DNA from: a phage
Assembly: GCA_027337125.1 (NCBI GenBank)
Contig: GCA_027337125.1_3057.1
DNA length: 64,000 nt
Strand: one strand, 5' to 3'
The position numbers were made by a program, and so were the translations under genes. This document shows, piece after piece, positions 48,821 to 53,690 of this stretch. The notes beneath the pieces were generated by a model, which ran no database searches, was not told the DNA's origin, and saw nothing but the letters and a program-made list of their open reading frames with translations. Positions within the stretch are counted from its first letter, which is position 1; every line of letters begins with the position of its first letter.

Positions 48821-49136
48821 TATTCGTCCGGTCGATGAGGCCGGTCTTTCAGAAAAAGAACTTTCAATTAAGAAAGAAAAGGATGAAATAGCAAAGCTTC
48901 TTGATCGTCAAGAAAATGGATTTATTATTGAAAAAATGGTAGAAGAGTTTGGAATGAGTTATCTTGAAGCTACAACAGCATTCTTAGAAGAAAATTCTAT
49001 TCCTGAAACTCAATTTGCTAAATTTATTCCTTCGGGTATAATTGAAAAAATTCAGTCAGAAGCTATTGACGAAAATCTTTTACGTCCTTCTGTTGTTCGT
49101 TGTGAAAAAACTAATACATTAGATTTTCTACTATGA
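48798..49136 (+). CDS. 33: gp33 late transcription co-activator
   Basis: 112 aa from ATG 48798 (MTQFSLNDIRP) matching T4 gp33. Confidence 0.9.
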   Translation: MTQFSLNDIRPVDEAGLSEKELSIKKEKDEIAKLLDRQENGFIIEKMVEEFGMSYLEATTAFLEENSIPETQFAKFIPSGIIEKIQSEAIDENLLRPSVVRCEKTNTLDFLL

Positions 49137-49786
49137 TTAAACTCCGCATGCCTGCTGGTGGTGAAAGATACATTGATGGTAAATCAGTTTATAAATTATA
49201 CTTAATGATAAAACAACATATGAATGGAAAGTATGATGTAATTAAGTATAATTGGTGCATGCGGGTGTCTGATGCCGCTTATCAAAAGCGAAGGGATAAG
49301 TATTTTTTCCAGAAGTTATCAGAAAAATATAAATTAAAGGAACTTGCTTTAATCTTTATAAGCAATCTTGTTGCTAACCAAGATGCTTGGATTGGTGACA
49401 TCTCTGACGCTGATGCACTTGTGTTTTATCGTGAATATATCGGACGCTTAAAGCAAATTAAATTTAAGTTTGAAGAAGATATTCGCAACATTTATTATTT
49501 TAGTAAAAAAGTTGAAGTTTCTGCTTTTAAAGAAATCTTTGAGTATAATCCAAAAGTCCAATCAAGTTATATTTTTAAACTACTTCAATCGAATATAATT
49601 TCGTTTGAGACGTTTATCTTGCTTGATTCGTTTTTAAATATAATCGATAAACATGATGAACAGACTGATAATTTAGTCTGGAATAATTATTCTATAAAGT
49701 TAAAGGCTTATAGAAAAATTTTAAATATTGATTCACAGAAAGCTAAAAGTGTTTTTATTGAAACTGTGAAATCTTGTAAGTATTGA
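49133..49786 (+). CDS. 59: gp59 helicase loader
   Basis: 217 aa; matches T4 gp59. Confidence 0.92.
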   Translation: MIKLRMPAGGERYIDGKSVYKLYLMIKQHMNGKYDVIKYNWCMRVSDAAYQKRRDKYFFQKLSEKYKLKELALIFISNLVANQDAWIGDISDADALVFYREYIGRLKQIKFKFEEDIRNIYYFSKKVEVSAFKEIFEYNPKVQSSYIFKLLQSNIISFETFILLDSFLNIIDKHDEQTDNLVWNNYSIKLKAYRKILNIDSQKAKSVFIETVKSCKY

Positions 49787-49787
49787 T

Positions 49788-50420
49788 ATGAATATAGTAT
49801 ATTGGTTTACATTTGAAGACCGTGTCAAAAATAAGACTCCGCCATACTACTATATCGGTAGTAAATTAAATTGCTCATTTGAGAACGGAATAATATATGA
49901 CTCTTCCGGAAAGGAATACTGGAGTTCGTGTAAACAAAAAAGATTTTTGAATGCGGTAATGCTTCAAAAACCGAGCGTTAAAATAATTCAAATTGATGAT
50001 GATTTGGATGTTATTGAAGCAGAGCGAAAATACCAACTTGAAGTAAATGCCAGAGATAATCCAGACTATTTTAATCTGGTATATGCTGGCGGCGGATTTG
50101 GTGTGAGTGGTGAAACTCACCCAGCTAAAGACCCGGAAGTTAGAGAGCATATGAGATTGGCTAATTATATGAACCGTGACGATTTCAGACCTTGGAAAAC
50201 ATCACGAGCTAATATAGAGTCTTGGAAATTATCTCATATTGCTTACGAGAATTATGTGTTATTATTATCCTCTAATCTGTACGGTAAAACTCCTGGATGG
50301 CGAAGAGTTAAAGGTAATATAAATATAACTGATACAACTGCTAAATCGATGGTAAAGTATTTCAACTCAGGTTGGATACCTCTCGAAGACCCAGAGTATT
50401 GCAAATTATGCCAGCTATGA
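49788..50420 (+). CDS. Seg-like GIY-YIG homing endonuclease (210 aa) inserted between 59 and 32
   Basis: N-terminal IVY...YYIGSK (GIY-YIG-like) with downstream R, E, N residues at expected spacing; occupies the T4 segG (32.1) position. Confidence 0.6.
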   Translation: MNIVYWFTFEDRVKNKTPPYYYIGSKLNCSFENGIIYDSSGKEYWSSCKQKRFLNAVMLQKPSVKIIQIDDDLDVIEAERKYQLEVNARDNPDYFNLVYAGGGFGVSGETHPAKDPEVREHMRLANYMNRDDFRPWKTSRANIESWKLSHIAYENYVLLLSSNLYGKTPGWRRVKGNINITDTTAKSMVKYFNSGWIPLEDPEYCKLCQL

Positions 50421-50474
50421 GGTAAAGTGTCATAGCACCAACTGTTAATTAAATTAAGTTAAAAAGGAAATAAA
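50411..50474 (+). promoter_or_regulatory. Gene 32 translational operator: leader hairpin/pseudoknot (GCUAUGA...UCAUAGC) plus unstructured A/U-rich tract before the start
   Basis: Sequence and layout match the known T4 gene 32 autoregulatory leader. Confidence 0.65.
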
Positions 50475-51380
50475 ATGTTTAAACGTAAATCTACTGCTGA
50501 ACTTGCTGCGCAAATGGCTAAACTGAATGGCAATAAAGGTTTTTCTTCTGAAGATAAAGGCGAGTGGAAACTGAAACTCGATAATGCGGGTAACGGTCAA
50601 GCAGTAATTCGTTTTCTTCCGTCTAAAAATGATGAACAAGCACCATTCGCAATTCTTGTAAATCACGGTTTCAAGAAAAATGGTAAATGGTATATTGAAA
50701 CATGTTCATCTACCCATGGTGATTACGATTCTTGCCCAGTATGTCAATACATCAGTAAAAATGATCTGTACAACACTGACAATAAAGAGTACAGTCTTGT
50801 TAAACGTAAAACTTCTTACTGGGCTAACATTCTTGTTGTAAAAGACCCAGCTGCTCCAGAAAACGAAGGTAAAGTATTTAAATATCGTTTCGGTAAGAAA
50901 ATCTGGGATAAAATCAACGCGATGATTGCGGTTGATGTTGAAATGGGCGAAACTCCGGTTGATGTAACTTGTCCGTGGGAAGGTGCTAACTTTGTACTGA
51001 AAGTTAAACAAGTTTCTGGTTTTAGTAACTACGACGAATCTAAATTCCTGAATCAATCTGCGATTCCAAACATTGATGATGAATCTTTCCAGAAAGAACT
51101 GTTCGAACAAATGGTTGACCTTTCTGAAATGACTTCTAAAGATAAATTCAAATCGTTTGAAGAACTGAGCACTAAATTCAGTCAAGTTATGGGAACTGCT
51201 GCTATGGGTGGTGCCGCAGCGACTGCCGCTAAGAAAGCTGATAAAGTTGCTGATGATTTGGATGCATTCAATGTTGATGACTTCAAAACAAAAACTGAAG
51301 ATGATTTTATGAGCTCAAGCTCTGGCAGTTCATCTAGTGCTGATGACACGGACCTGGATGACCTTTTGAATGACCTTTAA
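50475..51380 (+). CDS. 32: Single-stranded DNA-binding protein gp32
   Basis: 301 aa; matches T4 gp32 including zinc site and acidic C-terminus. Confidence 0.95.
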
Positions 51381-51402
51381 TAGATTATATTACTAATTAA
51401 TT

Positions 51403-51428
51403 GGGGACCCTAGAGGTCCCCTTTTTTA
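51403..51428 (+). terminator. Intrinsic terminator after gene 32 (GGGGACC-cuaga-GGUCCCC + U6)
   Basis: 7-bp G/C stem and T-tract. Confidence 0.8.
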
Positions 51429-51452
51429 TTTCAAAAATTTTTTCACAAAACG

Positions 51453-51482
51453 GTTTACAAGCATAAAGCTTTATGGTACTAT
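51453..51482 (+). promoter_or_regulatory. Early promoter cassette (GTTTAC 51453-51458, -10 TACTAT 51477-51482)
   Basis: Near-identical to cassettes at 2711, 30338, 34138. Confidence 0.65.
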
Positions 51483-51525
51483 ACAACTATCGGCAATACT
51501 GCTGATGATTAAAGAGGAAAATAAT

Positions 51526-51756
51526 ATGGCTAAAGTTGATATTGACATCGTTGATTTTGAATATATTGAAGAAATTATTCGTAATCGTTATCCTGAACTT
51601 AGTATCACAAGTATTCACGATGACCCTAATTATTGCAATTTTTCTATTGTCATTGAAGGTCCTCTTGAAGACCTCACCCGCTTTATGGCTAATGAATATT
51701 GTGATGGCATGGATGCCGAAGACGCAGAATTTTACATGGGACTGATTGAACAATAA
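51526..51756 (+). CDS. Hypothetical acidic protein (76 aa)
   Basis: ATG 51526 with AAGAGGA RBS. Confidence 0.55.
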
Positions 51757-51801
51757 TTATCAAGGGGCTATTACAGCCCCTATCAAAATGAGGAAAACAC
51801 A

Positions 51802-52182
51802 ATGTATATTGGCAAAAAGTATGAACTTGTTCCAAGACTTATTGATACATTTATTAATTATAGTCCACGTTCTAATTCATCAATAGTTAAAATTATTCAA
51901 GATAATGGCGGATGGTTTGAAGTCAAAGAAGTTTTCTTTGCTAATGGATTTAAAGCAGTAAAACACATTGAATGCGCTAATGGAAAGCATTTTTACCTCA
52001 AAGATAGACTTTTAGAAATTTGCGAAGACGAATTTCATTGTTTCCGCGAGTATAAAGAACCGACTTCTGAAGAAGATGAAGTCGAAGACAAGATTTCTGG
52101 CGTAACAAAAATTCACTGCGTTGTAGACGAAAACAATGTAGATGAAATTATTGAACTTTTGCGAAAAACTTTCAAAAAGTAG
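51802..52182 (+). CDS. Hypothetical protein (126 aa)
   Basis: GAGGAAAA RBS; preceded by hairpin AGGGGCU-auuac-AGCCCCU (51763-51781). Confidence 0.55.
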   Translation: MYIGKKYELVPRLIDTFINYSPRSNSSIVKIIQDNGGWFEVKEVFFANGFKAVKHIECANGKHFYLKDRLLEICEDEFHCFREYKEPTSEEDEVEDKISGVTKIHCVVDENNVDEIIELLRKTFKK

Positions 52183-52489: not shown

Positions 52490-52732
52490 ATGATTTTTGT
52501 TTTTGAATTTATGAATGACGAATTCGATTATGCAATTTTTAACGCATTACATAATCCTGATTTAAGTGAATTTAATGAAATGTTTTCTGACGCTTTGAGT
52601 ATGTCAGAAGAATACTGTGGAGAATGTCAACGTGTTTGTGTGACAGTTTTTGAAAACAAAGAAAAGACATATGAAGAGTTATTCTTTGATGCTAATAAAG
52701 CCACTGAATGGTTTATTGAAAAGGGGTTTTGA
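52490..52732 (+). CDS. Hypothetical acidic protein (80 aa)
   Basis: GAGGAAAA RBS. Confidence 0.55.
   Translation: MIFVFEFMNDEFDYAIFNALHNPDLSEFNEMFSDALSMSEEYCGECQRVCVTVFENKEKTYEELFFDANKATEWFIEKGF

Positions 52733-53690
<958 letters not shown>

Follow-up and report, generated by a model that had tools for sequence, protein, structure and literature searches.

The free-standing homing-endonuclease gene segG ends inside the translational operator of gene 32 in the phage DNA studied here (contig GCA_027337125.1_3057.1; the whole stretch of 64,000 nucleotides is called the window in the following). We consider it highly probable that this is the T4-type gene 59/segG/gene 32 junction, in which segG runs into a pseudoknot older than itself, that the overlap is largely harmless and that segG and its pseudoknot type are linked by co-conversion. 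The overlap is real and it is an already known T4 arrangement, as it has been stated explicitly by Borjac-Natour, Petrov and Karam (2004, Virol J 1:4, PMC535899), who also proposed that the pseudoknot is older than segG and that segG is a chimera which was extended into the pseudoknot of the recipient. New support for this proposal was drawn from about 500 deposited genomes and is described below.

A search with the region 49133–51400 matched 726 phage records with a best identity of 98.6%, and from its sequence we assign the source to the genus Tequatrovirus, as a T4-like phage distinct from T4. All features named below are located on the plus strand unless stated otherwise. Gene 59, encoding the helicase loader, is present in the ORF list at 49133–49786 (Pfam T4_Gp59_N, E 1e-53; T4_Gp59_C, E 5e-52) and ends with a TGA at 49784–49786. 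After a gap of 1 nt the ATG of segG follows (T4 gene 32.1; 210 codons, 49788–50420, stop TGA at 50418–50420), so that the position and orientation of segG between genes 59 and 32 match the gene order of the T4 record. Gene 32 at 50475–51380 (ORF list; Pfam gp32, E 1.5e-66) encodes the single-stranded-DNA-binding protein of 301 aa and is both the regulated gene and the repressor; 3' of it a terminator-like hairpin with a T run is found at 51403–51421. The exact 85-nt junction together with the leader is already contained in 18 deposited records, including RB3, RB5–RB10 and Sf24, where it is annotated as "segG" followed by "single-stranded DNA binding protein". In the frd region 3' of gene 32 we also observed an 80-aa ORF (52490–52732) between a frd.1-like ORF and frd, and a 115-aa ORF (53343–53690) which overlaps the end of frd.

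The original prediction of a Seg-family endonuclease was borne out, as the ORF product shares 208 of its 210 residues with T4 SegG (NP_049855) and matches PHROG 7504, "homing endonuclease", with an E value of 1e-133. Judged by its sequence the ORF 49788–50420 is SegG, the ortholog of the T4 enzyme. Pfam gave no match to a GIY-YIG domain in SegG even at an E value of 10 and with five homologues, and neither NCBIfam nor a PDB sequence search returned a match for the protein. A comparison of a SegG profile with I-TevI reached a probability of only 4%, with the invariant residues E79 and N96 aligning to one I-TevI segment. This segment presumably holds the catalytic Glu75 and Asn90 of I-TevI. The pattern VYW...YIG can be seen at residues 4–24 of SegG, and an AlphaFold single-sequence model had a pLDDT of 30, which made it unusable for a fold search. 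The GIY-YIG assignment is taken from the literature, in which T4 SegG, nearly identical to the protein studied here, is described as an active GIY-YIG free-standing homing endonuclease with gene 32 as its target (PMC2988022, PMC2330249). It is reported to cleave gene 32 of segG-less phages site-specifically, resulting in homing and co-conversion (Liu et al. 2003, cited in PMC2988022, PMC2330249), and in mixed infections it excludes T2 gene 32 (PMC2330249). As expected for a mobile gene, segG is sporadic among close relatives and was found in 141 of about 498 Tequatrovirus records. Since the segG ATG is located 1 nt past the gene 59 stop and shows no clear Shine-Dalgarno sequence, the sequence suggests that segG translation is coupled and low-level.

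The ORF had been predicted to terminate at 50420 inside a hairpin that forms the 5' part of the autoregulatory leader of gene 32. Its end and the inverted repeat were confirmed: GCTATGA (50414–50420) and TCATAGC (50430–50436) are 100% complementary over 7 bp with a spacer of 9 nt. The regulatory element also stood, by its identity to T4 and its position, but the simple hairpin did not, because the sequence identifies these 7 bp as stem 2 of the T4 gene 32 H-type pseudoknot. The full structure, UGCC-A-GCUAUGA-GGUA-AAGUG-UCAUAGC, covers 28 nt (50409–50436). It consists of the 5' strand of stem 1 (UGCC, 50409–50412, within segG and identical to T4), loop 1 (a single A at 50413, invariant in 9 of 9 leaders compared), the 5' strand of stem 2 (GCUAUGA, 50414–50420), whose last three bases are the segG stop, the 3' strand of stem 1 (GGUA, 50421–50424), loop 2 (AAGUG, 50425–50429, the same as in RB69) and the 3' strand of stem 2 (UCAUAGC, 50430–50436). 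Both stems were found by a pairing scan and by covariation, stem 2 by the inverted repeat in addition, and loop 2 by the pairing scan and the comparison with RB69. The architecture is that of the H type, with the 5' strand of stem 2 sitting in the loop of stem 1 and a loop 1 of 1 nt. Because the 5' strand of stem 1 also lies within the ORF, segG and the pseudoknot overlap by 12 of the 28 nt and not by 7, comprising Cys207, Gln208, Leu209 and the stop codon (UGC CAG CUA UGA, the last four segG codons).

Folding of the RNA (81 nt and 36 nt) recovered the 7-bp hairpin as the dominant local structure in both cases, with energies within the range of chance (z = -0.4 and z = -1.7, respectively). As the folding energy alone is unremarkable, the reality of the structure rests on comparison. 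Compared with the T4 leader, the segment 50404–50457 shows no difference from the gene 32 operator that was mapped by experiment and footprinted in T4 (PMC535899). Measured from the gene 32 start the pairing scan places the pseudoknot at -66 to -39, compared to the published -67 to -40 in T4 (PMC3014915), and the shift of 1 nt is due to the leader being 1 nt shorter here. On T4 RNA, gp32 protects positions +3 to -70 and thus reaches into the last segG codons (PMC535899), so that the structure does not lie wholly 3' of the ORF stop.

For the covariation analysis nine distinct leaders were used, namely the T4, T2 and RB69 types, five other Tevenvirinae variants and Bp7. All of their stem positions are paired (100%, a percentage inflated by the fact that the leaders were picked by a scan demanding pairing), and 7 of the 11 pairs are altered on both sides. 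The covariation score of 0.76 was reached by 0 of 500 shuffles, and slid controls gave at most 0.20. Random 160-nt windows trigger the pairing scan in 5.5% of cases. Covariation of both stems extends to seven other leader types, in which the pseudoknot is equally far from the gene 32 start. As MAFFT misplaced the 3' strand of the T2 type when applied to full pseudoknots, loop 2 was trimmed to 3 nt, which leaves the paired columns in register.

An Rfam scan of 49000–52000 with E values up to 10 gave no family for the gene 32 pseudoknot. Its only hit was a sub-threshold match to DUF2815 RNA at 50420–50477 (20.3 bits compared to a gathering score of 41.2, E = 1.7), with the resemblance mainly over the UAAaguUAAAAAGGaAaUAA..AUG part, which is probably a chance likeness of strong ribosome-binding sites. 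On the minus strand a sigma-70-like match (ATGACA-17-CATAAT with an upstream TG, 10/12) runs from 50433 to 50405, antisense over the pseudoknot DNA; promoter-like matches in this region are no commoner than in shuffled sequences. PMC3014915 cites work on antisense transcription of T4 gene 32.

The operator continues at 50437–50474 with the A/U-rich tract UUAAUUAAAUUAAGUUAAAAAGGAAAUAAA, which carries the AACUGU box (50440–50445), UUAAA-type repeats and the Shine-Dalgarno sequence AAGGA (50464–50468) and formed no stable structure in the fold. The phage shares with T4 the gene order, the pseudoknot sequence, the position of the stop within stem 2 and 99% of the SegG residues, but three single-base differences are found near the junction: G to A at 50403, which changes Glu205 to Lys beside the RNase E site, A to G at 50458 within a UUAAA repeat, and one A fewer before the ATG, the latter two belonging to the operator tract. 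The UUAAA-type repeats (50445–50463) differ in number and sequence among near-identical phages, with UUAAAUUAAAUUAAA in T4, UUAAAUUAAGUUAAA with the G at 50458 in the window and one unit fewer in the T2 type and in the IMG/VR metagenomic contig L002. Binding of gp32 and translational repression have been shown for T4 and RB69 (PMC535899), and by sequence identity we infer both for the leader of the phage studied here.

Within the segG coding sequence the T4 late promoter TATAAATA for gene 32 is found at 50318–50325, about 150 nt 5' of the gene 32 ATG, as the only plus-strand match between genes 59 and 32, and in phage SA20RB a late promoter is annotated at the equal offset in segG. This agrees with Edgell et al. 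(2010, PMC2988022), according to whom both the middle and the late promoter of gene 32 are located within segG and segG transcripts are affected by RNase E processing. Two candidate middle promoters in segG were read from the sequence, a MotA-type one with the pattern GCTT-N14-TAAAAT (49961–49984) and an alternative one with GCTT-N15-TATTAT (50241–50265), a form used by one deposited record to annotate T4 middle promoters. A MotA-box-like match ATGCTTCA is located at 49959–49966, and the motif is not enriched. As scans with MotA-box and sigma-70 patterns showed no enrichment over shuffles, their matches are candidate sites only. The ortholog of the RNase E "-71" site, AAAUUA at 50403–50408 in segG codons 205–206, was assigned by T4 alignment and numbering. 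It occupies T4 positions -73 to -68, lies 4 nt 5' of the pseudoknot and differs from T4 only by the G to A at 50403. For T4, Uzan and Miller (2010, PMC3014915) describe RNase E cleavage at -71 in every gene 32 mRNA species and fast decay of the part upstream of it, and cleavage at the equivalent position is likewise expected for the phage studied here.

Promoters of essential genes are known to be embedded in free-standing homing-endonuclease genes of T4 (PMC2988022), and segG fits this pattern in carrying the late promoter of gene 32 and, according to the literature, its middle promoter as well, which favours retention of the endonuclease gene. In contrast to the cases of that review, which embed promoters, the 3' end of segG embeds an RNA operator.

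To place the overlap in an evolutionary context, phages of the T2/T6 type and RB69 are most informative. T2 and T6 have an H-type pseudoknot and share with the window stem 2 (GCUAUGA/UCAUAGC, with its UGA), the single A of loop 1 and the downstream operator, and the NMR structure of the T2 gene 32 pseudoknot is available (2TPK, cited in PMC3014915). They lack segG, however, and their pseudoknot is wholly intergenic, with a stem 1 of 5 bp (UGACC/GGUCA) and a loop 2 of 7 nt; the leader reads TGACC-A-GCTATGA-GGTCA-TACATCG-TCATAGC. In Tequatroviruses of this type the gene 59 stop and the pseudoknot are separated by the 35 nt TTGCTTATTATAAATAGATTATAATTATCTCACTGA, at the site where segG sits in T4, and these promoter-like 35 nt carry TTGCTTA, TATAAATA and TATAAT. 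The sequence then runs CCAGCTATGAGGT, the same as in the window from 50411 on. None of the 43 T2-type records among the matches listed has an annotation over the pseudoknot. Since these segG-less phages carry the same CCAGCUAUGAGGU block with its UGA in non-coding DNA, the UGA of stem 2 exists without any ORF, and the sequences indicate that the pseudoknot is older than segG and that the segG frame was extended into it.

The protein side points in the same direction. Up to about residue 206, SegG can be aligned with the SegG-like proteins of Bp7 (60% identity) and RZ, whose tails beyond this point are unrelated to it. Homology to Bp7 and RZ thus ends at about Lys/Glu205-Leu206 while homology to T2 begins at CCAGC, 50411. 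Because the leader homology starts where the SegG homology ends, the C-terminal tail of SegG appears to be chimeric with its last three codons and stop taken from the older leader, in agreement with the hypothesis from 2004.

RB69 provides the second comparison. Its pseudoknot is located at the equivalent place, autoregulation by RB69 gp32 has been shown by experiment (PMC535899), and the 3' strand of stem 1 together with loop 2 (GGUAU-AAGUG) is almost of the T4 type. Unlike T4, RB69 has no segG and a longer leader, and a compensated change from U-A to C-G in stem 2 (GCUACGA/UCGUAGC) removes the UGA. As GGUA-AAGUG is nearly the same in this segG-less phage, the T4-type stem-1 3' strand and loop 2 do not appear to be a response to segG.

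In our preferred model the H-type pseudoknot would nucleate cooperative gp32 binding on the gene 32 leader. Gene 32 would be transcribed from promoters within segG, giving RNAs without the segG start codon, and RNase E would cut every gene 32 transcript at about 50405, 4 nt 5' of the pseudoknot. Because of this cleavage and of the promoters within segG, the stable mRNA that is translated and repressed would start 4 nt before the pseudoknot and would be free of segG ribosomes. Only where polycistronic RNA stays uncut would a ribosome finishing segG need to open the pseudoknot, and RNase E cleavage would leave the segG mRNA without a stop codon. A SegG cut within gene 32 would cause the leader, which lies between the cut and the endonuclease gene, to be copied along. 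The view that the overlap is largely harmless is thereby derived from the T4 literature and the sequence identity.

Three other explanations have to be weighed against this model. That the 7-bp repeat is a chance hairpin which regulates nothing, and that the ORF ends there without any meaning, is almost certainly wrong: the unremarkable folding energies (81 nt and 36 nt) and the missing Rfam family would fit such a coincidence, but there is sequence identity to the T4 operator known from footprinting, both stems covary in the other leader types and the T2 version has an NMR structure. We rejected it on the basis of the T4 identity and the covariation. A functional coupling between segG translation and gene 32 regulation is regarded as improbable. 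Ribosomes ending segG at the UGA might unfold the pseudoknot on unprocessed RNA and relieve the repression by gp32, or the gp32-bound pseudoknot might block the last segG codons. The geometry is suitable for both, as a ribosome terminating within stem 2 would cover both stems, the T4 gp32 footprint extends to -70 and into segG (PMC535899), and the RNase E site is located 13–15 nt before the stop, so that a cleaved segG mRNA would have no stop codon. However, the segG-internal promoters and the cleavage at -71 would strip segG ribosomes from the stable message, the start of segG suggests low translation, and T2-type phages regulate gene 32 without any ORF over the pseudoknot. A published test of coupling between segG and gp32 was not found in our literature search.

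The remaining explanation is an adaptive co-evolution in which the 3' strand of stem 1 and loop 2 changed after the fusion, restoring the pairing with the 5' strand encoded by segG. It draws on the linkage of gene and operator: the T4-type variant (UGCC/GGUA, loop AAGUG) and segG appear fully linked, with 141 records for the T4-type pseudoknot and 141 for a complete segG (a 142nd segG match is a T4 fragment ending within the ORF), and the T2 type (UGACC/GGUCA, loop UACAUCG; 353–357 records) occurs only without segG, this linkage being taken from record counts and not record by record. We nevertheless find this scenario very unlikely. GGUA and AAGUG are also present in RB69, which belongs to a different genus and has no segG, and are therefore no novelty acquired after the insertion, and the T4 pairing was kept via a G-U wobble with the loss of one pair, which is a weakening and not a compensation. 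The linkage itself would be expected without selection, because SegG cuts within gene 32 and homing co-converts the DNA up to the endonuclease gene. Taken together, the sequence data favour hitch-hiking by co-conversion over adaptive co-evolution, and the conflict or co-evolution between endonuclease gene and RNA structure that the original prediction had raised is disfavoured by the RNase E cut 5' of the pseudoknot, the promoters in segG and the strand and loop shared with RB69. A quantitative effect on repression is possible since stem 1 of the T4 type, with 4 bp including one G-U (-3.1 kcal/mol), is shorter and weaker than that of the T2 type with 5 bp (-6.1 kcal/mol, both calculated for isolated hairpins).

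The metagenomic contig L002, a close relative whose gp59 and gp32 are identical to those of the window, carries an extra T in a T run of segG (49944–49948 in the window), resulting in a frameshift after about 45 codons. The embedded promoter and the pseudoknot are intact and the leader is shortened by one 5-nt repeat unit. This is either a decaying gene or a homopolymer sequencing error.

SegG-like genes occupy the same site between genes 59 and 32 in other genera. In Jiaodavirus 19 records carry an endonuclease gene, and about 125 records without it have the pseudoknot GUCC-A-GUUGCAA-GGAC-CCAUG-UUGCAAC. Jiaodavirus genomes with the endonuclease gene (Boboto, L084; KPV15, L089) have no pseudoknot, and the SegG-like ORF of Klebsiella phage Boboto (1801–2463) runs through the AACUGU box and the Shine-Dalgarno sequence to a stop 3 nt before the gene 32 ATG, an overlap that goes further than the one in the window. 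Dhakavirus genomes of the Bp7 type (L085, 2191–2288) have an endonuclease gene and a pseudoknot located entirely 3' of its stop. This pseudoknot (ACCU-A-GUUAUCA-AGGU-AAACG-UGAUAAC) was found only in the 14 records with an insert between genes 59 and 32, and JS98 (L088, 410–499) has no endonuclease gene or insert, no pseudoknot and a different gene 32 N-terminus; the operator of this genus seems to come and go with the insert. In the Gaprivervirus phages RZ and VR7 the endonuclease gene is present and the pseudoknot is not. The annotated 32.1 endonuclease of VR7 (L082, 1800–2535) has 182 aa compared to 212 aa in its relative RZ, followed by a gap of 187 nt that resembles the part coding for the cysteine-rich C-terminus of Boboto, and its sequence suggests an endonuclease gene in decay. 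We rejected the idea of a pseudoknot that invariably accompanies the endonuclease cassette, as all four combinations of presence and absence exist across genera. Across these sequences the pseudoknot appears to be evolutionarily labile, with an operator type that tracks the endonuclease gene within each genus.

The AACTGT motif (50440–50445 in the window) recurs 23–65 nt 5' of gene 32 with or without a pseudoknot (L006–L015, L020 and others). It is present in 27 of 30 Tevenvirinae loci and reaches 20.8 per kb in the 80 nt upstream compared to 0.61 per kb in the flanks. Pseudoknot-less phages have three to four copies in the last gene 59 codons, in three different codon phases, with the gene 59 stop 10–27 nt before the gene 32 ATG. 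AACTGT may be an operator element at the nucleotide level.

In summary, the window itself adds nothing beyond published knowledge on T4, and our addition is a modest one: hundreds of genomes support the chimera hypothesis from 2004 and argue for hitch-hiking over co-adaptation. The junction is a textbook case of a selfish gene lodged against an essential regulatory element, in which the embedded host promoters and half of the operator make the endonuclease gene hard to delete and the linked operator variant is spread through the population by homing. In three genera, Tequatrovirus, Jiaodavirus and Dhakavirus, presence of the endonuclease goes along with a different operator architecture, which in Tequatrovirus with segG is a pseudoknot overlapped by the gene and weakened in stem 1. 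Though this is unlikely, the gene 59/32 junction could be a hot spot where the traffic of homing endonucleases swaps the whole translational operator of gene 32 along with the endonuclease gene. If the operators differ in repression strength, or if ribosomes ending the endonuclease ORF open the operator, selfish elements would rewire the autoregulation of an essential replication protein.
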